Positions 11,206-58,677 of a stretch of 64,000 nucleotides of DNA are shown here, one piece after another (within the stretch, counting starts at the first letter, position 1; each line of letters begins with the position of its first letter). The notes beneath the pieces are model-generated. The model was not told the origin of the DNA, did no database searches, and was given only the letters and a program-made list of their open reading frames with translations. A program made the translations under genes and the position numbers. Origin of the DNA: Acidimicrobiia bacterium (GTDB taxonomy: Bacteria > Actinomycetota > Acidimicrobiia > Spongiisociales > UBA4744); the NCBI GenBank assembly GCA_029863625.1, contig JAOTUY010000001.1:82046-146045 (forward strand), given 5' to 3'.

Positions 11206-12639
11206 ATGGTGCCACTGGTTGCCGGAATCGATTGCTCGACACAGTCGACGAAAGCCTTGATCGTTGATGTCGACTCGGGTGAAGCAGTTGCGATCGGGAG
11301 AGCAAACCACGAAGTCACCGGGACGGGCGGAGCGCGGGAGTCGGACCCCGAAGGCTGGTGGACCGCTCTACGCGATGCGATCGGGCAGACGGGCCGGGGA
11401 GCTGAACTGGCCGCGATTTCCATTGCCGGGCAACAACACGGAATGGTGGTCCTGGATGGCGATGGAAAACCGCTTCGGGCGGCCAAGCTGTGGAACGACA
11501 CAGAGTCAGCCGCAGATGCGGCGACTTTGATTGATGCTCTGGGGGGATCCAACTGGTGGGCCGAGCGGGTCGGTCTCGTGCCCGTCGCCTCGTTTACGGC
11601 AGCCAAATGGGCCTGGTTGCGGCGGATGGAACCTGACGTAGCCACGGCTACGGCCGCCATTCGTCTACCTCACGATTTCCTGACCGAACGGCTGTGCGGA
11701 CGCGGGGTTTCCGACCGAGGGGATACGTCGGGGACCGGGTGGTGGTCGACGGCAACGGAGGCATACGTCGACGAGGTCCTGGACCACCCTTCCATTCGTC
11801 TCGACCCCGCCCTCCTTCCGGTCGTGCTCGGTCCGCGGGAAGTGGCCGGAAACGTCACCAGCGAAGCGGCCGACTTCGTTGGTATTCCGGCCCGTATTCC
11901 GGTCGGTCCCGGCACGGGTGATAATGCCGGCGCGGCCATCGGCCTCGGTTTGGAGCCGGGTGTGCCGGTCATCAGCCTGGGGACCTCGGGGACCGCTTTC
12001 ATGGTTTCCGAATCGCGCAGCGCGGATCCTTCCGGGACGGTGGCCGGGTTTGCCGACGCCACCGGGCGTTTCCTCCCGTTGGCGGCAACGCTCAACTGCA
12101 CTCTGGCGGTGGATCGGGTGGCATCCTGGCTCGGGCTCGAGCGTGACGACGTGGTCGCACCCACCGAGGTAGTGGTTCTGCCGTTTTTCGATGGGGAGCG
12201 GACGCCGAATCTCCCCGATGCCGCGGCTTCCATTATCGGGCTGCGGCATACGACCCTGCCCGGTGAGATCTTGCTCGGTGCTTATCAGGGTGCGGTCCTC
12301 AGTCTGCTCGATGCCCTCGACGTGATCGATCGTTGCAGCTCCGGAATCGGGGTCGACGCGCCCCTGGTTCTGGTCGGCGGAGGATCGAAAGGTTCCACCT
12401 GGCGGAGCGTCATTCAGGCGATGTCCGGTCGAGCGATCCAGATTCCCGAGGCAGAGGAACTCGCGGCTCTTGGAGCAGCTGCCCAAGCGGCCTCGATGCT
12501 CGGTGGAGAGCACCCCGACGCGGTGGCGAGGCGATGGGGAACCCGCCGGGGTACCGTTCTTGAGCCGGTGTCGAGAGATGAGCAAACGCGCAACCGAATT
12601 CACCGGGTGCGCGAACTGACCACGGAGCTGAACGGGTAG
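11206..12639 (+). CDS. xylB: FGGY-family carbohydrate kinase (xylulokinase-like)
   Basis: N-terminal VAGIDCSTQSTKALIVD, ISIAGQQHGMVVLD, FGGY C-domain GGGSKGSTWRSVIQ. 477 aa. Confidence 0.75.
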   Translation: MVPLVAGIDCSTQSTKALIVDVDSGEAVAIGRANHEVTGTGGARESDPEGWWTALRDAIGQTGRGAELAAISIAGQQHGMVVLDGDGKPLRAAKLWNDTESAADAATLIDALGGSNWWAERVGLVPVASFTAAKWAWLRRMEPDVATATAAIRLPHDFLTERLCGRGVSDRGDTSGTGWWSTATEAYVDEVLDHPSIRLDPALLPVVLGPREVAGNVTSEAADFVGIPARIPVGPGTGDNAGAAIGLGLEPGVPVISLGTSGTAFMVSESRSADPSGTVAGFADATGRFLPLAATLNCTLAVDRVASWLGLERDDVVAPTEVVVLPFFDGERTPNLPDAAASIIGLRHTTLPGEILLGAYQGAVLSLLDALDVIDRCSSGIGVDAPLVLVGGGSKGSTWRSVIQAMSGRAIQIPEAEELAALGAAAQAASMLGGEHPDAVARRWGTRRGTVLEPVSRDEQTRNRIHRVRELTTELNG

Positions 12640-43135: not shown

Positions 43136-44092
43136 CTAGGTCCAGGTCAGGCTGCTCCGCTTTGACCAATAGAGCTCGGGGCTTTCAGCCATGGCCGGAA
43201 GCTTGCCGGGCTCCACCGTGAGGGCCTCGAGGTTCGATGACAGCTGATCGACGGTGGCCGCTCCGCTGAGGACTACGTCCGCCCAGGGCTGCGCCAGAGC
43301 CGCCGCCAACGCGGCAACGTCGGGGGCTACTCCGGGTCGCCACTGGCGCAGCCTGGCAGCTGCCGTTCGGTCGCGGGTGGTGAGACGGCCGTTGGCCAAT
43401 GCCTCTTTCACGATCACACCGACACCGTCTGCGTGCGCTTTGGCGAGTATCGGTCCTGTGGAGGGTTCGAGCAGGTTCCAGGTTGCCTGAATCGTTCCGA
43501 AAAGCCGGGCGCCGTCGACCTCGATATCGATGGCGCGCCGGATTGTCTCGCTCTGCCATGGCCCGCTGGCACTCAACCCGATGATGGCACCTTCTCCGCG
43601 AATCGCTGCCAATCGTTCGAGCACGGCCCGGTCACTGAGCACGTCCAGCGTTGCGGAGTGAATCTGATACAGCTTTAGGTGAGGGCAGAGAAGACGCAAG
43701 GTCTCCTGATATTGCGAATCGAGATGTCCAACGGTGAGATCTTTGATCTCGTGGGTTTCGGCCGCAATCCGCCAACCTGCCGTATAGCGATATCCCCACT
43801 TGGAACTCACCGTAATCTCACCCGGCGCGATGTTCCGAGTTGCCAGCCAACTCGCCAGGAAGGCTTCAGCCCTTCCGTAGGAGCGGGCCGCATCGACATA
43901 ACGGATTCCCGCCTGCCGGGCCTTGTCCAGCACATCATGGGTGTGTTGTTCGAGTGCCTCGATGGTGCGCCGTCCGGCCAGGTCGACACCGTGACCGAGG
44001 TTGAGATAGCCGGGTCGACCCAGGGCAGCCAACCCGAGACCTAGCCGGGTCACCTCGAGTCCCGTTTCGCCGAGCGGCCGTGATTGCATCAC
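43136..44092 (-). CDS. Aldo/keto reductase family oxidoreductase
   Basis: LGLGLAALGRPGY..., IRYVDAARSYG, and a TIM-barrel AKR pattern. Confidence 0.8.
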   Translation of the reverse strand: MMQSRPLGETGLEVTRLGLGLAALGRPGYLNLGHGVDLAGRRTIEALEQHTHDVLDKARQAGIRYVDAARSYGRAEAFLASWLATRNIAPGEITVSSKWGYRYTAGWRIAAETHEIKDLTVGHLDSQYQETLRLLCPHLKLYQIHSATLDVLSDRAVLERLAAIRGEGAIIGLSASGPWQSETIRRAIDIEVDGARLFGTIQATWNLLEPSTGPILAKAHADGVGVIVKEALANGRLTTRDRTAAARLRQWRPGVAPDVAALAAALAQPWADVVLSGAATVDQLSSNLEALTVEPGKLPAMAESPELYWSKRSSLTWT

Positions 44093-44245
44093 CCCACTTT
44101 ACGAAGCGGACGTCAATCAGCCGGTCGACCCCAGGCCGGGTGGCCGGTGGCACCCGGGGGAAAGGCCCGTCCTCCTAGATTTGCCCTGCGTGCGCTGGTC
44201 ACCGGTGCCGGGATCGGCCATTATGGATCGCTCAATGAGCCTCAT

Positions 44246-47200
44246 ATGACTTTCACTTCGTCCGAACTCCGCGCCCGCCTCGACGGACTCGCACCGAATG
44301 ACCGGCAGCGCTTCCGGCGCCGGCTGTCCGGAGCCGATCGCCTCCCCGACCCCACCCGGCGGGAGAAGGTGCTCGCCACGATCGCCGGGGAGATCGACGC
44401 CGCTCGTCAGAGACTCGAGCGACGCCGGGCAGCAGCGCCGACGAGGCTCGCCTACCCGGCCGAGTTGCCGATCACCGAACGCAGGCAGGAGTTGCTCGAA
44501 ACCATCCGGCGTCATCAGGTAGTGATCGTTGCGGGCGAGACCGGCTCGGGGAAAAGCACCCAGCTGCCAAAGCTCTGTCTCGAATTAGGTCGCGGTGTGG
44601 AAGGGATGATCGGTCACACCCAACCCCGGCGGATCGCAGCTCGGTCGATTGCCGAGCGGGTGGCCGAGGAACTCGCCACCACCGTCGGTGGGCTGGTCGG
44701 CTACTCGGTTCGGTTCTCCGATCAGATCGGCGAAACCACCCTGATCAGACTGATGACCGACGGCATCCTGCTGGCAGAAATCCACCGGGATCGGCGTCTG
44801 AGCCGTTACGACACGATCATCATCGATGAAGCCCACGAACGCAGTCTCAACATCGATTTCCTGCTTGGCCACTTGAAGACGCTGCTACCCCGTCGCCCCG
44901 ATCTCAAAGTCATCATCACGTCGGCCACGATTGACACCGAGCGGTTCTCTGAGCATTTCCAGAATGCCCCGGTCGTCGAAGTGTCGGGCCGCACCTACCC
45001 GGTCGAAGTGCGGTATCGGCCTCTCGATGACCCCGCCGAGCCCGAACCGCGCGACCAGCCGCAGGGCATCTGCGATGCGGTGGTTGAGCTCTTCGGGGAG
45101 GGGTCGGGCGACATCCTGGTGTTCTGCTCGGGGGAGCGGGAGATCCGAGACGCGGCCGACGCCCTGGCCGAGCTCGACCTGACCCACACCCAGGTGCTGC
45201 CACTGTATGGTCGGCTCTCTGCCGCGGAACAACACCGGATCTTCCAGTCGCACCGGGGCAGAAGGGTGGTGCTCGCAACCAACGTGGCCGAAACCTCCCT
45301 CACGGTGCCCGGCATCCGCTACGTCGTAGATTCAGGAACTGCCCGAATCTCACGGTACAGCAAGAGAACCAAAGTCCAGCGCTTGCCGATCGAGCCGGTG
45401 TCCAGGGCCTCAGCCGACCAGAGGGCCGGCCGGTGCGGGCGTCTCGGCCCGGGCGTGTGTATTCGTCTGTACAGCGAGGACGACTACAACGCCCGCCCCG
45501 AGTTCACCGAACCGGAGATTCGGCGCACCAACCTGGCCGCCGTGATCCTGCAAATGCTTGCCCGGGACCTGGGCGATATCGAGACTTTCCCGTTCCTCGA
45601 TCCGCCCGACGCCCGCACGATTCGAGATGGGATCGCCTTGCTGGCCGAGTTGGGAGCTGTGCAGCCGGAGCAGCAGAGATCCGGGAAATGGCTGACCAGG
45701 GTGGGCAGGCAGATCGCCGAGTTCCCGCTCGATCTTCGGCTGGCCCGCATGATTATCGAAGCCGATCGCAACGGTTGCCTCACCGAGATTCTCATCATCG
45801 CCGCAGCGTTGGCCATTCAGGATCCGCGTGAGCGTCCCCTCGAGAAACGGCAGCACGCCGACCAACAGCACACTCGCTTTCGTGACGCAGATTCGGACTT
45901 CCTGAGCTGGCTGCGTCTCTGGGAGTACCTGGGCGACGAGCGACGGGCCCGGACCTCGAACCAGTTCCGGCGGATGTGCCGGGACGAGTTCCTCAACTAC
46001 CGGCGGGTGCGAGAATGGCAAGACGTCCATGCGCAGCTGCGCGACGTGGCGGATGAGCAGGGCTTCACGGTGAATCGCCGGCCGGCGGCCCCGGATATCA
46101 TTCACCGCTCCCTTCTGGCCGGCCTTTTGTCAAATATCGGTCATAGAGACCCGAATGGTTTCGAATACCGCGCTGGACGGGGCGCTCGCTTCTCCATCAA
46201 CCCCGGCTCAACCCTGTTCAAGCGGTCCCCTGAGTGGGTGATGGCGGCCGCACTGGTGGACACGAGCCGGTTGTGGGCCAGGGGAGTCGCCGCGATCGAT
46301 CCGGAATGGGTCGAAGAGGTGGGTGCCCACCTGGTCAAACGTTCGTACTCAGACCCCTGGTGGGACCCGGCTCGAGGCGCGGCCATGGCCCGGGAGACGG
46401 TCACCCTTTTCGGCCTGCCTCTCCAGACCGATCGCACTATCCAATACGAACCCGTCGACCCGGCCGGAGCGAGAGAACTCTTCATACTCAACGCCCTCGT
46501 AGCCGGCGAATGGGAAACCGATCACCGATTCATTCGGCACAACCGGTCTCTCATCGCTGAAGTTCATGCCCTCGAGGCACGCCGGCGGCGCGCCGATTTG
46601 CTGGTCGATGACGAGGTCATCTACCACTTCTTCGATCAGCGGATTCCTGGGGACACGACGTCGGTGCGCCATTTCGATAGCTGGTGGAAAGAGGCTCGCC
46701 GTCTGGATCCTCATCAGCTCGACCTCAATCTCGACCTGCTCATCGATTCGGCCACGGGTCCGGTCGACGAGTCGGCCTTCCCGGAAGTGTGGGCTCACGG
46801 GGATTTGGCGCTTCCCATCACTTACGAGTTCGATCCGGGCAGCCCCACCGACGGGATCACCGTCGACATTCCGATTCAGGATCTCGACCGGGTCGATCCG
46901 GCTGTATTCGAGTGGCATGTGCCGGGTGTGCGCGAAGAGCTGGTCACGGCGCTGATCCGGTCGCTGCCCAAGCAGCTAAGGAAACGGTTCTCACCCGTTC
47001 CCAATACGGTTCGACTGCTGATGGAAGATCTCGATCCAGACGACGGGGGACTCCTCAGCTACCTGCGGCGAGACCTCGCTCGAATCGGCGGTATTCCGGT
47101 TCCGGCCGACGCGTTCGACTTCACCCTTCTCCCGTCCTATCTTCAGCCGACCTTTCGAATAGTGGACGGCGAGGGCCACGTCCTCGCCGAGGGCGGCAAT

Positions 47201-48124
47201 TTGGCCGCTCTCAAGACGGACTTGCGGGAGGAAGCCAGAGCGACGGTAACGGCCTCCGGCCACGAACTCGAGCAAACCGGTTTGACCGCCTGGAGTATTG
47301 GCGAACTTCCCCAGGTTGTGGAGATCAGCGGAACAACCCACTCTGTCAAGACATATCCGGCCGTGATCGACGAAGGAACCTCCGTGGGCGTCCGGCTCTT
47401 GGCCACCCCTGGAGAGCAGGCAGACGCCATGTGGGCCGGAATCCGCCGCCTCCTCTTGTTGAATCTGCCATCGGCCGGGCGCCTGCTCCGGCCATTGCTA
47501 ACCAGCCAGGCGACCGCCGCGGTCAAGGGCGGTCCCTACGACACACCGGCGGAGTGGGCGCAGGATTGCCTCACCTGTGCGATCGATCGGATCATGGGAA
47601 AGGTGGGCGCTCAGATTTGGGACGGGGTGGCCTTCGAAGGTTTGCTGGCTGAAACCCGCGACCAACTCGACGGCCGACTCACCGGGGTGGCCGAAGCGTC
47701 GCTGCAGATCCTGAGCACCCTCCTATCCGTCCGGGTGGCGCTAGCCCGAGTCTCCAGCCCCTTTGAGAGCACCGTCGCCGATATCGAGGATCAACTCGAT
47801 CGGCTGATTTATCCTGGATTTGTGGCGGGGATCGGGGCCGAACGCCTGTCCGACCTGAACCGGTATCTCCAAGCCATTGAGCGCCGGCTCGAACAGCTAC
47901 CGGAGAGCGCCGAACGCGACCGACGGAGGATGGCATCGGTACAGAAACTGGAGGATCAGCATGATCGGCTGCGGGAAGCGCGGCCGGATTCAGCGTCGGT
48001 ATTGGAGATCGCCTGGATGTTGCAGGAACTGCGGGTCAGTCTCTTTGCCCAAGCCCTCGGCACTCGCGGCAAGGTCAGCGAGAAACGAATCGCCCAGGCG
48101 TTGGCCGATGCACTGGCCGGGTGA
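44246..48124 (+). CDS. hrpA: ATP-dependent RNA helicase HrpA (DEAH-box)
   Basis: Walker A GETGSGKSTQLPK, DEAHER, HA2/OB and C-terminal HrpA domain. 1292 aa from the ATG at 44246. Confidence 0.85.
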   Translation: MTFTSSELRARLDGLAPNDRQRFRRRLSGADRLPDPTRREKVLATIAGEIDAARQRLERRRAAAPTRLAYPAELPITERRQELLETIRRHQVVIVAGETGSGKSTQLPKLCLELGRGVEGMIGHTQPRRIAARSIAERVAEELATTVGGLVGYSVRFSDQIGETTLIRLMTDGILLAEIHRDRRLSRYDTIIIDEAHERSLNIDFLLGHLKTLLPRRPDLKVIITSATIDTERFSEHFQNAPVVEVSGRTYPVEVRYRPLDDPAEPEPRDQPQGICDAVVELFGEGSGDILVFCSGEREIRDAADALAELDLTHTQVLPLYGRLSAAEQHRIFQSHRGRRVVLATNVAETSLTVPGIRYVVDSGTARISRYSKRTKVQRLPIEPVSRASADQRAGRCGRLGPGVCIRLYSEDDYNARPEFTEPEIRRTNLAAVILQMLARDLGDIETFPFLDPPDARTIRDGIALLAELGAVQPEQQRSGKWLTRVGRQIAEFPLDLRLARMIIEADRNGCLTEILIIAAALAIQDPRERPLEKRQHADQQHTRFRDADSDFLSWLRLWEYLGDERRARTSNQFRRMCRDEFLNYRRVREWQDVHAQLRDVADEQGFTVNRRPAAPDIIHRSLLAGLLSNIGHRDPNGFEYRAGRGARFSINPGSTLFKRSPEWVMAAALVDTSRLWARGVAAIDPEWVEEVGAHLVKRSYSDPWWDPARGAAMARETVTLFGLPLQTDRTIQYEPVDPAGARELFILNALVAGEWETDHRFIRHNRSLIAEVHALEARRRRADLLVDDEVIYHFFDQRIPGDTTSVRHFDSWWKEARRLDPHQLDLNLDLLIDSATGPVDESAFPEVWAHGDLALPITYEFDPGSPTDGITVDIPIQDLDRVDPAVFEWHVPGVREELVTALIRSLPKQLRKRFSPVPNTVRLLMEDLDPDDGGLLSYLRRDLARIGGIPVPADAFDFTLLPSYLQPTFRIVDGEGHVLAEGGNLAALKTDLREEARATVTASGHELEQTGLTAWSIGELPQVVEISGTTHSVKTYPAVIDEGTSVGVRLLATPGEQADAMWAGIRRLLLLNLPSAGRLLRPLLTSQATAAVKGGPYDTPAEWAQDCLTCAIDRIMGKVGAQIWDGVAFEGLLAETRDQLDGRLTGVAEASLQILSTLLSVRVALARVSSPFESTVADIEDQLDRLIYPGFVAGIGAERLSDLNRYLQAIERRLEQLPESAERDRRRMASVQKLEDQHDRLREARPDSASVLEIAWMLQELRVSLFAQALGTRGKVSEKRIAQALADALAG

Positions 48125-52830: not shown

Positions 52831-52914
52831 GATGGTCCCCGTTGGTCACGCTGATGGTAGATCGCACCGAGCCGGGGTGGGGCGGGCAGGGCAACCCCGG
52901 AAGGTTGCCGGAAG

Positions 52915-52985
52915 AGCGGGTGAGGGGAATTGAACCCCCGTTCCAAGCTTGGGAAGCTCGTGTTCTACCACTGAACTACACCCGC
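52915..52985 (-). tRNA. tRNA-Gly (anticodon CCC)
   Basis: The reverse complement folds as a cloverleaf: acceptor GCGGGTG/CACCCGC, D-arm GTTC-AGTGGTA-GAAC, anticodon stem/loop CGAGC-TTCCCAA-GCTTG, T-arm GGGGG-TTCAATT-CCCCT. CCA is not encoded. Confidence 0.85.
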
Positions 52986-53469: not shown

Positions 53470-55614
53470 CTACGCGGTGCCGACTGCTCGCCTGCTCACG
53501 ACCACCGGTAGGTGGGTCGGGCCGGTCAGCCGGTCGGATTCGAGCATCGAGATCCGTTCCGGGTCGACTTGAAGCTCCATCTCGTGGAGCCGGGGCCTGA
53601 TCGCCGCCAGCGCTGCTTGGGCCTCCAACAACGCCAGGCGCGCCCCGGGGCACCGATGCGGCCCGGCACCGAACGCCAGGTTCGACACGAGATCTGCCAG
53701 GCGCGTGCTCTCGGCATCCGGAGTTTCGGCGCCGTTTGCTGCGGCGAGGTTCGCAGCAACCACGGTGCGCGCGGCGAGCGATCGCTCACCAATCGCCGTC
53801 TCCTGGGTCACCAGCCGGTACACCCGGGCGACAGGTGGCCGGGTCCATAACACCTGTCCAAGGAGCGCTTGGTCCGATAGGCGCGCCCTGGGCGGCACGC
53901 CGGCGGCGAACAACGCGACTAGGGCATTGCCGATCAGGTGCGTCGTCGTTTCGTTGCCGGCCACTAGGAGCAAGCGGGCCACGCTGACCGCCTCCTCTGC
54001 GGCCAGGGCCTGGAGACCGTGCAGGATGGAGCTGATGAGATCCGCTCCGGGCGCCCGCTGCAGCCGGTCGACCAGGGCGACCAGCGCTTCTTCGAGTTCC
54101 GCGAGGTCACTCTCCGAATCGATCGAGTCACCTCCCTGCCTAACCCCGGTGCCGGCCAACACCACGGCGTCGGACCATCGGCCAAGGTCTGCAAGAGGCA
54201 CGCCGTCCAATCCGAGGAGCCATCCCATCGTGGCCACTGGGAGAGGTTTGGCGAAGTCGCCGACGAGATCACCGGTCCCTCTGGTGAAGATCTGTCCAAC
54301 GAGACGGGCGGCGAGTGATCGAACTTCGGGCTCGAGCGCAGCGACCCGGCTGTCCGACAGGGCCTGCGTCAGCGCCCGGCGCGTGCGTGTGTGCGCCGGC
54401 GGGTCGGCTCCCAGCAGAACGGGATCCGCCGCGGCCATAATGGAAGAGGAGAACGACTCCGGGTCGCGCAGCACTGTGATCACGTTGTCGCGGCCGGTGA
54501 TCTCGACAGGACTCGCCGGCGCTTTGTCGGCGGGTCGCCGGGAGGTGGTTGCGGATCGGATTGGGGTCACCTCGAGCGGCGGTGCCGGATCCGACGGGGA
54601 GACTTCGAGCCTCGTTTGTATCGCCCTCAAGGAGCTGAGCACAGTGGCGGCCGTGTAGTTCCGGTTCTGATCGAAGATGATCGATCCGGCGCCCCTTCCG
54701 GACGCTACCCATCCGTCATGGTGTTGCGGATCGACGACGTTGGGCGGCGGGATTCGTAGCGACGCCGACGCCGCCCACGCTCCATCCGCGGCTTGGGTGG
54801 CGAGGAGCCAGCCGGCTGCGCGCTCCAGTCGGTCCAACACACTGTCGGGGCCCCAGCGGGCCATGGTCTCCGCGGCACAGGCCGTGGCGAAGGATGACCC
54901 GCTGGGGTGCCAACGCGTCGCAACGGCCCCGACCACATCGACGCGTGAGCACATGGCGAGGGCCGCTCGCTGGAGTCGCTCCAGGTTGTCCGGTGCTGCG
55001 GCGCGCCCCAGCATGCGGCCCGCCAGCATGGTGGGGTACTCATCGTCGGCCCACCAGTATCCGGTCCAGGACCCGTCGGCGTTTTGCACCGATCTGAGGT
55101 ATTCGACGGCGCGCTGATGACCCGCATACTCGGGGATATCGGCGGCAGCCGTCACGCACACGTGATCGCCGCACCACCCCGCGAACGAGATGGAGCCCGA
55201 AAGCTTCGTGAATGCCCCGATCCTCCCGGCGGATCGGAACGTGGCGACCGCCCCCGACGGACGAGCGTGCCGGGCTACCAAGTCCAGCGCCCGGCTCGCC
55301 CGTCGGCCGCCGAGGTTGCCCATCCGTTCCGCCAGCTGCAGCGCCCACAATGTGGAGTCCGCGTCCGTTGGCACCCTCCGGTTGTAACCCCAGCCACGCT
55401 CCCAGCGCCGGCGACGCCGCAGCAGCCGCCATGCATGGCGCGCCGCCTCACGAGCCCGTTGCTCGGGCTCACCCGCGATCGCGACGGCGACATAGGCCGT
55501 CACCCACTCGTCGCTCGCTCCGGCCAGGGTGTCGAAGTCGCGCCACCAGCCTCGGCGGTCCCGACCGGTCAGCAGGAACTCGGTTGCCCGGTCGCGACCA
55601 GCCTGGATCTCCAT
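53470..55614 (-). CDS. Fusion protein: N-terminal class-II terpene-cyclase-like (squalene-hopene-cyclase repeat) domain plus C-terminal cytochrome P450
   Basis: N-domain: FLLTGRDRRGWW, DEWVTAYVAVAIAG, VPTDADSTLWALQLA (DxDD to DADS), QNADGSWTGYWW, QAADGAWAAS (QW motifs). C-domain: I-helix LVAGNETTTHLIGNA, heme loop FGAGPHRCPGARLA. ATG at 55614. Track residues 1-162 are an Arg-rich artefact overlapping the next gene. Confidence 0.75.
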   Translation of the reverse strand: MEIQAGRDRATEFLLTGRDRRGWWRDFDTLAGASDEWVTAYVAVAIAGEPEQRAREAARHAWRLLRRRRRWERGWGYNRRVPTDADSTLWALQLAERMGNLGGRRASRALDLVARHARPSGAVATFRSAGRIGAFTKLSGSISFAGWCGDHVCVTAAADIPEYAGHQRAVEYLRSVQNADGSWTGYWWADDEYPTMLAGRMLGRAAAPDNLERLQRAALAMCSRVDVVGAVATRWHPSGSSFATACAAETMARWGPDSVLDRLERAAGWLLATQAADGAWAASASLRIPPPNVVDPQHHDGWVASGRGAGSIIFDQNRNYTAATVLSSLRAIQTRLEVSPSDPAPPLEVTPIRSATTSRRPADKAPASPVEITGRDNVITVLRDPESFSSSIMAAADPVLLGADPPAHTRTRRALTQALSDSRVAALEPEVRSLAARLVGQIFTRGTGDLVGDFAKPLPVATMGWLLGLDGVPLADLGRWSDAVVLAGTGVRQGGDSIDSESDLAELEEALVALVDRLQRAPGADLISSILHGLQALAAEEAVSVARLLLVAGNETTTHLIGNALVALFAAGVPPRARLSDQALLGQVLWTRPPVARVYRLVTQETAIGERSLAARTVVAANLAAANGAETPDAESTRLADLVSNLAFGAGPHRCPGARLALLEAQAALAAIRPRLHEMELQVDPERISMLESDRLTGPTHLPVVVSRRAVGTA

Positions 55615-55622
55615 CTGAGAGG

Positions 55623-56252
55623 TCAGCAGGATGCGGTGATGTACGTCGCGTTGGGGGCCAGCACTTGTGCGCCGGCGTTGGCAGTGGGGCCGCTGCTCCA
55701 GCTTCCGCCGCTGAGCACCTTCACCGACACCTGCCCGGTCGACGGATTCCACACGACGAACTCGCCGGCCCTCAGTCCGCCCCCGATGGCCGATGTTTCG
55801 CCGCAGAAGGCGTTCACCGTCGCTCCGCCGGGGTTGATCGTGCCTCGGCCGACGTAGAAGCGGTTCTCCAGCGCCCACGAGTCGAGCTCGCCGCCGCCGC
55901 ACGAGTGGACGATCTCGTGAAAGACCGTCACGTCCGTGTCCGCTTGCACATTGGGTGGTAACGCCAGCGCACACATGTTGATGCTGTCCCCGTCCCGCGG
56001 TGCGGTGCCGAAGATGCCCGCCCGGCAGCTGCCTCCGAGACAGTCCACGTTCACCGACGCAATCGTCTTGCCGGCGAGCCGGTTCGCCAGGGTGGCGCAC
56101 TCGCCGCCCAACGCAGCCACCTGGGCCCGAATCGTGTTTTGCATGAAGTTGAAAGCGGAGGTGATCGCGTTGCGGTCGTTGAGATTGCAGTTCGGTACCT
56201 CCGTACCGCCTCCGGACCAGCTGCCGCCCTCGGTGTGTGTTACGAACGGCAT
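55623..56252 (-). CDS. Cys-rich HExxH zinc-metallopeptidase-like protein
   Basis: VTVFHEIVHSCGGGE (HExxHxxGxxE). About 10 Cys, no signal peptide. ATG at 56252 lies 7 nt after the upstream stop, with GAGG. Confidence 0.55.
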   Translation of the reverse strand: MPFVTHTEGGSWSGGGTEVPNCNLNDRNAITSAFNFMQNTIRAQVAALGGECATLANRLAGKTIASVNVDCLGGSCRAGIFGTAPRDGDSINMCALALPPNVQADTDVTVFHEIVHSCGGGELDSWALENRFYVGRGTINPGGATVNAFCGETSAIGGGLRAGEFVVWNPSTGQVSVKVLSGGSWSSGPTANAGAQVLAPNATYITASC

Positions 56253-56259
56253 GGAAGCC

Positions 56260-56721
56260 TCAGGACTCGAACTGCCACAGCACAAGCACGCCGCGGCTCA
56301 GTGGAAGGGGTACCTTCGAACCCTCGCTCGCGGCGCGGTACGAGCCGACCTGGGCCCGGCGGGCGTACATCGCCGCATCGGCGGGCTCGAGTGCGATCTC
56401 CCATCGAACCACGCCACCATCCGGAAGCTCTTGCGCACTCTGCAGCTTGATGGGCTCCTCGAGGTTCTGACCCTCGAACGGCGACTCGCCCTCCATCTCG
56501 ATGGGCTCGCCGTCACGCTCGTAGAGCTGCAATTTCCACGCCGCCACCTTCTTCTCCTCCATGAAGTGCACCTCGATGGAGGCTTTGCGTCCGTTGGCAT
56601 CGACGAGCTGGCCGGACCAGACGCTACGTTCTTGGGCCACGCGCGCTCCTTTCGCTGAGCGGCTCGGCGATGCCGGGCGTAGCCGGGACACCGCAGCCGG
56701 GTGGTCGTAGGCCGAAAGCAT
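56260..56721 (-). CDS. Hypothetical 153-aa acidic protein
   Basis: ORF between the acyltransferase and the HExxH gene. No known motif. Confidence 0.45.
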   Translation of the reverse strand: MLSAYDHPAAVSRLRPASPSRSAKGARVAQERSVWSGQLVDANGRKASIEVHFMEEKKVAAWKLQLYERDGEPIEMEGESPFEGQNLEEPIKLQSAQELPDGGVVRWEIALEPADAAMYARRAQVGSYRAASEGSKVPLPLSRGVLVLWQFES

Positions 56722-56731
56722 ACACTCGGGC

Positions 56732-57691
56732 TCACGCCTTGTAGGCGATTCTTTCGATGGCCTCGAGCACCGAGGACGAGTCGTCGTGGGCGCTCATCGT
56801 CGGCAGGACTGCGGCCCCGCCGGCAGCTTCAGTCACTGCGGTGGACAAGATGGGGTGAGGGCCGACTTCGACGAAGGTTCGTATGCCGGCGCGCGCCATG
56901 GAGCGGACAGCGGATACAAAGAGTGCCGGTTCGGACATGACGCGCCACCAGTAGTCGATTGTCAGGCGAGACCCATCGATGGCAGCGCCCTTGAGCGAGG
57001 AGTAGAAGGGCGCCGGTGCCGAGCGGGGCCGGATCGACGAGGCGGCGGCACGGAACGGCTCGCGCAGCGGCTCCATCTCGGCGCAGTGGAAGGCATACCG
57101 CAGCGTCTGCCGGCGCGTCCCGAGGCCCCGGGCGGCCACCACTGCCAGCGCCGAGTCGACGGCGCCCTCTTCGCCGGTGATCACGGTTGCCGTCGGGCTG
57201 AGCTCGACGGCGATCCAGACGTCGTCTCGTCCGTCGATGGTTTCCCGTACCGCCTCGGCTGATGCCAGCACCAGGGCCATTTGTCCGGACCGTAGCGGGC
57301 GTCGGATGGCCTCCGCTTCGGCGCCGGCAACGGCGATGGCGTCCTCCAGGCTCAATGAGCCGATGGACCACGCCGCGGCGAGTTCCCCCATGCTGAGACC
57401 CACCACCGCGTCCGGCGCCACCCCGGCATCGGCTAGCATCGCCGCTAACCCGATTTGAACGGCCGTGAGCACGGGCTGCACCCGATCCGGCTCTGCGTCG
57501 GAACCTCCCAGCCGCGACACCTTCTCGAGAATCGACCAGCCGAACTGATGTCGGCAGGCGGCATCGCAATCGGCCATCGCTTTGGCGAAGGCGGCATTGT
57601 CTAGTAGCAGTCCGTCGGCCATCCCGGGCCACTCCCCGCCCTGGGAGGAGAACACGAAGGCCACGGCGCCGGTCGTGAATAGGTCGTTCAC
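56732..57691 (-). CDS. Stand-alone acyltransferase (malonyl-CoA:ACP transacylase / PKS-AT fold) with a GLSMG active site
   Basis: AFVFSSQGGEWPGM (compare FVFPGQGSQ), GLSMGELAAAW (GHSxG variant), AFHCAEM. GTG at 57691 overlaps the upstream stop as GTGA. 320 aa, which matches FabD length. Confidence 0.7.
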   Translation of the reverse strand: MNDLFTTGAVAFVFSSQGGEWPGMADGLLLDNAAFAKAMADCDAACRHQFGWSILEKVSRLGGSDAEPDRVQPVLTAVQIGLAAMLADAGVAPDAVVGLSMGELAAAWSIGSLSLEDAIAVAGAEAEAIRRPLRSGQMALVLASAEAVRETIDGRDDVWIAVELSPTATVITGEEGAVDSALAVVAARGLGTRRQTLRYAFHCAEMEPLREPFRAAASSIRPRSAPAPFYSSLKGAAIDGSRLTIDYWWRVMSEPALFVSAVRSMARAGIRTFVEVGPHPILSTAVTEAAGGAAVLPTMSAHDDSSSVLEAIERIAYKA

Positions 57692-58677
57692 GGCTGAATG
57701 TGGGATGCGCCGAACCACGAGTACACCACCGAGGGCAGGGCCGAGTGGAGCCAGCCCGGTACCTGCGCCCCGGCTGGGAGCCGATGCCGCCATTCCTCGA
57801 GGCTGTGCACTCCACGGGAGACGATGCGGGCTGCCACGGCGGCCGGCGGGCGGGACCGGAGCGCGATCTCCACCAGGTTGGGCTCGTTTGCCTGCTCGTC
57901 CGCCTCGATGTCCATCGCGTCGTCGATTGCGCCGATGAACGCGCCGACGCCGAACATCCAACGGAGGTGCCACAGGAAGGTCGCCCGATCGGGAGATTGC
58001 GCCGGGAGCCACGCGGGCAGTCCCAGGACCACGAAGGGGAGCGCCGCTTTACGACGGAGCAAACCCGGCACCGCCAGTACCCCCGGTCGCGTCAGCGCCA
58101 CCTCAGCGGCGTGCATGCGCACCACGGCGTCGTCAAGTAACCGCCGAACCGTCTGGGCGGCGTCGCCGTGGGGGAGATCGTCCACCTCCGAGAAGTACCG
58201 CCTGACGAGCAGCGCCACGGCTCGGCCCGGCGCGAGCAAGTCTCGGGACCGTCGCCGAGGAGCGCCAGCCCAGTGCCCTAACAGGTCGAAAACGTCTTCG
58301 GGGAGCAAGCCGTTCGCTGGGATCCCTGCGTCGAGAAACGCGTCGTAGACCGTGACGATGAGGTTGGCGAGCGCCCCGATGTCGGCGACCCATTGCTCGA
58401 GGTCTGGTGCCAGGCCCAGCGGTGCGATCAAGAAACGGGTGAGGAGCCAGCCGAAGCCCATGATGCGGACAGGGTCGTCCGGACCCAGCGCCGTGGGCAG
58501 GGTGGCCATCGCGTCGAGCCAGGTCCTCGACCCCGCCAGCGGATCCAGGTCCCTCCAGAGACGTGCCCCTTGGCGCGACACGTGCCCGCGCACGTCCTGG
58601 TAGACGTGCGCGGACGGGATCAACTCGCGTGTCATCAGCTCATCCCAGACGAGCCGGCGAACAGTCACCGCAGGCAA
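57688..58677 (-). CDS. All-alpha protein with Asp-rich motifs at class-I terpene-synthase-like spacing (function unknown)
   Basis: VYDAFLD (roughly residue 112) and IDDAMDIEADE (roughly residue 252), about 140 aa apart. 329 aa with no TM. Translationally coupled to the acyltransferase. Confidence 0.5.
   Translation of the reverse strand: MPAVTVRRLVWDELMTRELIPSAHVYQDVRGHVSRQGARLWRDLDPLAGSRTWLDAMATLPTALGPDDPVRIMGFGWLLTRFLIAPLGLAPDLEQWVADIGALANLIVTVYDAFLDAGIPANGLLPEDVFDLLGHWAGAPRRRSRDLLAPGRAVALLVRRYFSEVDDLPHGDAAQTVRRLLDDAVVRMHAAEVALTRPGVLAVPGLLRRKAALPFVVLGLPAWLPAQSPDRATFLWHLRWMFGVGAFIGAIDDAMDIEADEQANEPNLVEIALRSRPPAAVAARIVSRGVHSLEEWRHRLPAGAQVPGWLHSALPSVVYSWFGASHIQP

Follow-up and report, generated by a model that had tools for sequence, protein, structure and literature searches.

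The window analysed here is a stretch of 64,000 nucleotides from an Acidimicrobiia bacterium (contig JAOTUY010000001.1). It carries a stand-alone acyltransferase (AT) gene within a five-gene operon (Table 1). Judged from its sequence, the protein is a free-standing descendant of the AT domains of polyketide synthases (PKSs), not a housekeeping FabD. With its closest relatives it forms a clade that the alignments identify as a new variant of the AT fold, with what appears to be a clade-wide rewiring of the substrate pocket. The AT and a cytochrome P450 constitute one optional module of a terpene-cyclase cassette: they are co-present or co-absent in every locus complete enough to judge. We tentatively propose, at a little less than an even chance, that the AT is an optional tailoring enzyme that acts with the P450. 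It would load a non-carboxylated acyl group and pass it to a hydroxyl made by the P450. AT-fold enzymes are the textbook carrier-protein loaders of fatty-acid and polyketide synthesis.

An AT gene apart from FabD

The AT reading frame begins with a GTG codon at 57691 and ends with a TGA stop codon at 56734-56732. The GTG overlaps the TGA stop codon of the upstream gene (GTGA, 4 nt). A longer reading of 426 aa (start at 58012) was rejected: it runs into the upstream gene, and homologues do not back it. The Pfam model Acyl_transf_1 (PF00698) matched the protein with an E-value of 5e-57 and 194.2 bits (gathering cutoff 32.7) over profile positions 2-294 of 319, which places the protein in this superfamily over the full domain. 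A sequence-only reading of the window had quoted the motifs FVFSSQGGEW, GLSMGE and AFHC, all of which were found. FVFSSQGGEW (aa 12-21; 57658-57629) includes the oxyanion Gln17; GLSMGE (aa 98-103; 57400-57383) includes Ser100 (codon 57394-57392), preceded by Leu99; and the third motif, as RYAFHC (aa 198-203), includes Phe201-His202. Homologues in other phyla are 36-77% identical, and the gene with its motifs is far beyond chance. The two deviations pointed out in the same reading, Leu in place of the His that precedes the Ser and Ser-Ser in place of Pro-Gly, were both confirmed and are kept across the clade. That the motifs reproduce the landmarks of malonyl-CoA:acyl carrier protein (ACP) transacylases is true only in part: the quoted motifs are there, but the set is incomplete, and the absence of the malonyl-binding Arg had been missed.

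The FabD-like identity first given to the protein did not survive comparison with curated models. The fabD model TIGR00128 gave 78.5 bits, far below its equivalog cutoff of 260.9; scores of 160-233 bits were obtained with type I PKS AT models and DEBS structures. The highest of these scores (233 bits) came from the NCBIfam type I PKS model NF045894; the PKS equivalog models of NCBIfam matched only locally and far under their cutoffs. Among solved structures, the AT's top matches were modular PKS ATs, including that of DEBS, with 150-160 bits, as compared with 77.6 for FabD and 82 for PksD. When the protein was used as a HMMER query against 1.8 billion representatives, the matches that followed a near-identical copy were multi-AT PKS megasynthases. 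Annotation pipelines would be prone to mislabel such a protein as FabD or as a PKS fragment.

The phylogeny agreed with these scores. In a neighbour-joining tree with 200 bootstraps, the AT clade was monophyletic in 194 of the 200 replicates. The AT-P450 fusion P0036 (698 aa) was its sister. The clade lay far from E. coli FabD, the sequence of which served as outgroup only. Clustering with housekeeping FabD, which had been named, along with the lack of another fabD in the genome, as the sign of an ordinary primary-metabolism enzyme, was not seen; the tree put the protein in its own clade inside the PKS-AT radiation. No second AT-domain open reading frame (ORF) was found in the 64-kb window, and the annotated genes flanking the operon are unrelated housekeeping genes.

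Signature of the AT clade

To describe the clade, we built MAFFT alignments of the window protein, its relatives in related loci and canonical ATs. The clade motif F(S/P)(S/A/T)QGGxW replaces FPGQGxQW, so that GQG becomes (S/A/T)QG. The elbow, GHSxGE in canonical enzymes, is invariantly GLSMGE: the Ser of the FabD-type GHSxG elbow is kept and its His is Leu in every clade member. Further downstream, xFAFH keeps the catalytic His, AVELxP replaces AA(V/I)NxP, and (Y/H)WWx(V/I)MS replaces YWxxNxR. The counterparts of the catalytic His201 and the oxyanion Gln11 of FabD are thus retained, His202 being invariant and Gln17 conserved; Ser100, too, is invariant or nearly so.

The malonyl-binding residue differs. 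Glu125 sits where FabD has Arg117, and this Arg-to-Glu assignment was obtained concordantly from the HMMER pairwise alignment to DEBS and from the MAFFT alignments. Gln occupies the position in six of the eight aligned clade sequences; the homologue of locus L019, 77% identical to the window AT, has Glu and that of L024 has Gly. By the Arg117 test, the clade falls outside FabD. The window enzyme retains its catalytic residues, but without the Arg it would be expected to accept neither malonyl nor methylmalonyl groups.

Could the AT have lost catalysis altogether and serve the P450 in a structural way, for example as its scaffold or as a subunit that presents the substrate? The clade has lost the Arg and the His before the Ser, both strongly conserved in ATs, and the motifs of the AT-P450 fusion P0036 are more degraded (GVSLGE, CAGGNGAW). 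Yet Ser100, His202, Gln17 and the Gly and Glu of the elbow are invariant across homologues that are as little as 36% and at most 77% identical. This indicates selection on catalysis, and we consider a dead or structural protein highly improbable.

The AT and the P450 as one optional module

The five genes of the operon (58677-53470) are separated by gaps of -4, 10, 7 and 8 nt, which bears out the view that the AT is embedded in an operon. Their order is X, the AT, a 153-aa protein (the '125-aa' protein), a 209-aa protein with an HExxH motif and a 714-aa cyclase-P450 fusion (55614-53470). Related loci were fetched using the HExxH protein and other operon members. The cassette gene set was found in Burkholderiales, Vicinamibacterales, Acidimicrobiia and Sediminibacterium metagenome-assembled genomes and on several metagenome contigs, covering four phyla. 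Its core consists of the cyclase, X, the '125-aa' protein and the HExxH protein. Identities were 30-60% for the '125-aa' protein; the core enzymes, with 32-50% for the cyclase and 25-36% for X, are the less well conserved overall.

The AT gene lies between X and the '125-aa' gene in L004/L010, L007, L008 and L013, and directly after X in L017, L019 and L024. Members of the AT clade came only with the cassette. The window, L004/L010, L007, L008 and L013/L014 carry both the AT and the P450, and L009, L015/L016 and L020 carry neither. L011 and L012 have no AT in the space between X and the '125-aa' gene. In the more distant loci L001-L003, the AT and the P450 are adjacent, and only the cyclase, the AT and the P450 are in common with the window; upon testing, L001 had no homologue of X, the HExxH protein or the '125-aa' protein and no ABBA-like prenyltransferase. 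The P450 is fused to the cyclase in the window, L004/L010 and L023, and its homologues are separate genes in L007, L008, L013 and L001. A polyprenyl synthase gene follows the cassette of L013 (9119-10126). Together with the isoprenoid-synthase fold of X, this points to a terpenoid nature of the operon, a terpene or prenyl-cyclase cassette that the sequence-only reading had not recognised as such.

The search for a carrier protein

Two ACP queries were compared by phmmer with the six-frame translation of the window and of the loci fetched by then, and neither gave a match; the E. coli AcpP sequence served as a probe. The claim that the window has no ACP, ketosynthase or phosphopantetheinyl transferase therefore holds for the ACP, as far as these two queries reach, while no search was aimed at the other two. 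The suggestion of a non-ACP acceptor has gained plausibility, as the conserved context lacks a detected ACP in about ten loci.

These results bear on the simplest biochemical role, that of a conventional ACP-loading transacylase with its carrier outside the window or, in the extreme case, of the cell's own FabD. The AT fold with its intact Ser-His dyad would suit such an enzyme. However, the protein misses the fabD cutoff by a wide margin, lacks the malonyl-binding Arg and is encoded in a G+C-rich segment beside a tRNA gene. Moreover, it travels with a terpene-cyclase cassette across phyla, and no fab or PKS gene was detected nearby in the loci examined. We therefore regard this role as very unlikely.

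Proposed role of the AT

The intact Ser-His-Gln set, the loss of the malonyl Arg, the lack of a detected ACP, the companionship with the P450 and the optional status of the pair together led us to the proposal of a tailoring pair. The cassette core (X, the cyclase and the two proteins without a known family) would build a cyclised prenyl moiety, either as a free (mero)terpenoid or as a prenyl group on a peptide or protein. For a prenylated acceptor, X would serve as the prenyltransferase and the chain that it adds would be cyclised by the MstE-like enzyme, in the manner of MstE with a prenylated benzoate. This would also give the two proteins without a known family a role, for which their GGSW and LWQF motifs are suggestive only. 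The P450 partner would hydroxylate the cyclised product. The AT would then take a non-carboxylated acyl group, acetyl-like or another monocarboxylic one, from an acyl thioester onto Ser100, with His202 serving as base and an oxyanion hole made up of the main-chain amides of Gln17 and of Met101, which follows Ser100. Finally, the acyl group would be passed directly to the hydroxyl without a carrier protein. A non-carboxylated acyl group was chosen because Glu or Gln replaces the malonyl-binding Arg. We infer the acyl donor, the acceptor, the order of the steps and transfer rather than hydrolysis.

Several points weigh against this proposal. In the literature searched, we found no AT-fold enzyme that directly O-acylates a small molecule or a peptide. 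To our knowledge, the AT-fold enzymes described so far deliver to ACP thiols or to water. The proposal leaves the cassette product and the two most conserved genes without explanation. The ACP search was shallow (the two phmmer queries), which leaves room for an ACP or an acyl-ACP donor encoded elsewhere, and several of the loci are short contigs, so that some absences are uninformative. Finally, the AT clade carries the signature of acyl hydrolases, that is, a replaced Arg, a residue other than His before the Ser and Phe-His, in the form of Gln/Glu, Leu and AFH. By our analysis, this signature would favour hydrolysis at least as much as transfer.

The main rival is accordingly that the AT is an acyl hydrolase or esterase. 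The acyl group on Ser100 would be released to water, and the enzyme might thereby remove an acyl or ester protecting group or cleave an ester or thioester on a pathway intermediate, in the way of the acyl hydrolases of trans-AT PKSs. In the structural study of PksD, the Arg forms a salt bridge with the malonyl carboxylate, and its loss, usually to Gln or His, is called diagnostic of acyl hydrolases (PMC11775670). In the same study, the residue before the Ser was not conserved in acyl hydrolases, acetyl could be loaded onto a trans-AT whose Arg had been mutated to Gln, and loss of the Arg removed malonyl binding (PMC11775670). The replacement of Arg by Gln, the non-His residue before the Ser, Phe-His and the oxyanion Gln are all as in these enzymes, and the lack of a detected carrier protein and of an obvious acyl acceptor also fits hydrolysis. 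On the other hand, the AT is nearer in sequence to cis-ATs, with 160 bits as against 82 for the acyl hydrolase PksD, the clade never occurs in a PKS cluster, and the cassette has no thioester- or ester-forming enzyme that could make a substrate. The tight coupling to a P450 is also more typical of hydroxylation followed by acylation. On balance, we consider hydrolysis unlikely, though a serious contender.

If the AT acts as proposed, a new acylating or deacylating catalyst would be at hand, and the AT fold would extend to the carrier-independent tailoring of terpenoids or prenylated peptides.

Peptides and proteins as possible acceptors

The AT might instead acylate a peptide or protein, at a Ser, Thr, Lys or Cys residue or at the N-terminus of the HExxH protein, the '125-aa' protein or a fragment of either, and so give a doubly lipidated peptide, prenyl-cyclised as well as acylated. 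The characterised relatives of the cyclase domain other than MstE are maturases of RiPPs, peptides synthesised ribosomally and then modified post-translationally (PMC13290415). Hallmarks of RiPP systems occur in L005 (PqqD, an HprK-like gene and a 53-aa ORF) and in L024 (a DUF692 gene beside X and the AT), and candidate acceptor motifs are present as GGSW or GGGGGSW(V/I) in HExxH proteins and as the LWQF end of the '125-aa' protein. However, when the surroundings of the cassettes were searched for a small conserved ORF that might encode a precursor, only alternative-frame shadows of conserved genes came up. Furthermore, the AT is optional while every cassette has the proteins that might be acceptors, the RiPP acyltransferases named in PMC13647313 are without exception GCN5-related N-acetyltransferases and not AT-fold enzymes, and the coupling of the AT to the P450 would be left unexplained. 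Acylation of a peptide or protein by the AT thus appears improbable.

A more elaborate scheme we rate lower still. The cassette would put a prenyl group post-translationally on a Gly-flanked Trp of a folded protein or of protein termini (candidate sites being GGSW of the HExxH protein and LWQF of the '125-aa' protein), and the MstE-type domain would turn it into a polycyclic terpene. In cassettes with the AT and the P450, the P450 would then hydroxylate this terpene, and the AT would O-acylate it independently of an ACP. It would then be the first case of direct decoration of a terpenoid or a peptide-terpenoid by an AT-fold enzyme. A RiPP recognition element or a short precursor as in the NctPC and ChrPC systems was not found, the only candidates for a precursor being the '125-aa' and HExxH proteins.

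Genomic setting of the operon

The G+C content is 0.67-0.69 in the segment 53000-59000 as compared with about 0.62 elsewhere in the window, and the G+C content at third codon positions is 0.79-0.85 in the operon as compared with 0.67-0.74 in the flanking genes. The raised G+C content and the tRNA-Gly gene that borders the segment are consistent with horizontal acquisition. Around the tRNA-Gly gene and the G+C-rich segment, only direct repeats at chance level were found when att-like repeats were sought, and no integrase was found by the segment. The cassette of L004 has a resolvase gene immediately upstream. PADLOC gave no defence-system match among the five operon proteins. Elsewhere in the window, the plus strand at 44084-48124 encodes a 1346-aa HrpA-type DEAH helicase with DUF3418, an ordinary housekeeping gene unrelated to the AT.

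Neighbouring proteins and related loci

The invariant residues of X are Asn105, Asp112 and Asp116 (YDxxLD) and Asp252, Asp253, Asp256 and Asp260 (DDxxDxxxD). Profile searches of Pfam, NCBIfam and the PDB gave no significant match for X. The '125-aa' protein had no meaningful match in Pfam or the PDB; its C-terminus is always GVxxLW(Q/H/N)F followed by zero to two residues. In L008, a second paralogue of this protein (11806-12237) lies in divergent orientation and has a signal-peptide-like N-terminus.

The HExxH protein has a near-invariant N-terminus, MxFxTHTEGGSWxGGGTEVxxC, four invariant Cys residues and the motif HExxHxxGxxExD. It also carries HEIVHSCGGGELD and a second GGSW; in all, GGSW is present two or three times. 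In many homologues the C-terminus is a GGGGGSW(V/I) tail, which the window copy lacks. The protein may be a substrate, a protease or something else. Most of the homologues from L004, L007-L018 and L020, in four phyla, are 50-78% identical to it, with divergent copies of 35-42% in L017, L018, L020 and, as a second copy, L009. Among 12 members of the family, the search for known families yielded one weak match to Peptidase_M76, and there was no PDB match. In L013 (8389-9058) and L014 (3244-3913), a second copy of the HExxH gene follows the P450 as three short ORFs and is apparently a frameshifted pseudogene.

The cyclase half of the fusion is about 40% identical to MstE (PDB 6sbb). It consists of a single alpha/alpha barrel of about 350 aa with a DxD motif, as expected for an MstE-type enzyme; a LanC-like or prenyltransferase-beta-like identity was ruled out by fold search. 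The motifs of the P450 half are intact: its I-helix has AGNETT, and the haem-binding Cys lies in FGAGPHRCPG. P0034 (828 aa) joins a P450 related to that of the cassette with an ABC1/UbiB-type kinase domain (PF03109).

Table 1. Features of the AT operon and its border, with positions in the 64,000-nucleotide window
Feature	Position	Strand	Evidence and remarks
tRNA-Gly(CCC)	52914..52985	minus	ARAGORN; about 480 nt downstream of the operon, at the edge of the G+C-rich segment
Linker and cytochrome P450 domain	53470..54564	minus	C-terminal half of the fusion; Pfam p450 and NCBIfam P450 models
MstE-type monodomain class II terpene cyclase domain, DADS motif (DxD)	54565..55614	minus	N-terminal half of the fusion
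HExxH protein of unknown family, 209 aa (about 205)	55623..56252	minus	Most conserved cassette gene
Protein of unknown family, 153 aa (about 115-145 aa in homologues)	56260..56721	minus	Kept beside the HExxH gene in every locus of the cassette
Stand-alone AT-fold enzyme, 319 aa	56732..57691	minus	Pfam Acyl_transf_1, PKS AT matches, clade signature
X, 329 aa from TTG (315 aa as database-called)	57688..58677	minus	Isoprenoid-synthase (alpha) fold

Some of the fetched loci have a different make-up. In L001/L002 (4357-6313, minus strand), two adjacent genes of 338 and 312 aa encode Gly/Asn-rich repeats of the GGNGG type. They sit between the MstE-like gene and the AT-P450 pair, with two GMC-oxidoreductase-like genes. 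L005 (8536-15033; Constrictibacter sp. MBR-5, GCA_040549485.1) is RiPP-like, with PqqD and HprK-like genes and a 53-aa ORF whose last residues are GGGGGGGFDGVDYS. It also encodes a 673-aa protein of NctPC-like architecture (ABBA-like at the N-terminal domain, MstE-like at the C-terminal one), two P450s and a methyltransferase. In L024 (57-1734) and in L025, a DUF692 (MbnB_TglH_ChrH) gene and ORFs of 87 and 174 aa lie divergent from the homologues of X and the AT.

Comparison with known systems

Among AT-fold enzymes, FabD has the fold, a similar length, the GxSxG Ser, the catalytic His and the oxyanion Gln in common with the window AT. It differs in the His before the Ser and in Arg117, where the window AT has Leu and Glu, so that malonyl binding is not expected. 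The AT of DEBS (PDB 8ee0/2hg4) is nearest in sequence, with about 35-40% identity and 150-160 bits over the whole domain. However, the cis-AT domains of type I PKSs are part of a ketosynthase-AT-ACP polypeptide, whereas the window AT stands alone and has no ketosynthase-AT linker. The acyl hydrolases of trans-AT PKSs, PksD and PedC, are stand-alone like the window AT; they, too, have the Arg replaced (by Gln) and keep Phe-His and the oxyanion Gln. They act on non-carboxylated short acyl groups, their substrate being acyl-ACP. In contrast, PksD gives only 82 bits to the window AT, and the AT clade is found in no PKS cluster and with no detected ACP.

Labdane-type diterpenoid clusters combine a class II cyclase with a class I synthase, a P450 and a geranylgeranyl diphosphate synthase. 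Their class II enzyme is a beta-gamma copalyl diphosphate synthase, whereas the window has a monodomain MstE-like enzyme, the protein X, which is equally close to prenyl-chain synthases, and two extra conserved genes without a known family. We know of no AT-fold tailoring enzyme as a feature of bacterial labdane-type diterpenoid clusters.

The merosterolic acid synthase MstE cyclises the chain on a prenylated benzoate. Unlike MstE, the window cyclase is fused to a P450. The partner of the window cyclase is a protein of the isoprenoid-synthase fold; a UbiA-type prenyltransferase was not seen in the annotated parts of the loci. Those parts of the MstE pathway accounts that were available to us do not mention an AT, an HExxH protein or a '125-aa' protein.

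The nearest peptide-modifying systems are NctPC and ChrPC. According to a review that summarises Hubrich et al. 2024, NctPC, an ABBA-type prenyltransferase with an MstE-like cyclase, geranylgeranylates Trp residues of ribosomal peptides and then cyclises the prenyl group, and ChrPC, in which a prenyltransferase resembling trans-isoprenyl diphosphate synthases is fused to a cyclase, carries out the same two steps (PMC13290415). In both, the prenyltransferase domain is fused to the cyclase, whereas in the window the cyclase has a P450 as its fusion partner and the candidate prenyl-handling enzyme X is encoded apart, by a gene of another family. The accounts of these systems, in the portions available, mention no AT-fold enzyme. 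Relatives of the window cyclase fit this picture, as do the gene sets of L005 and L024: only in related loci and not in the window, an ABBA-like domain occurs in one protein with the cyclase or next to it, in the company of P450s, three relatives of the window cyclase (P0016, P0027 and P0030) have an N-terminal prenyltransferase-type domain, and in L023 a prenyltransferase-like gene adjoins the cyclase-P450 fusion. The cassette is a horizontally spread, mobile and as yet uncharacterised relative of MstE and of polycyclic-isoprenoid systems.

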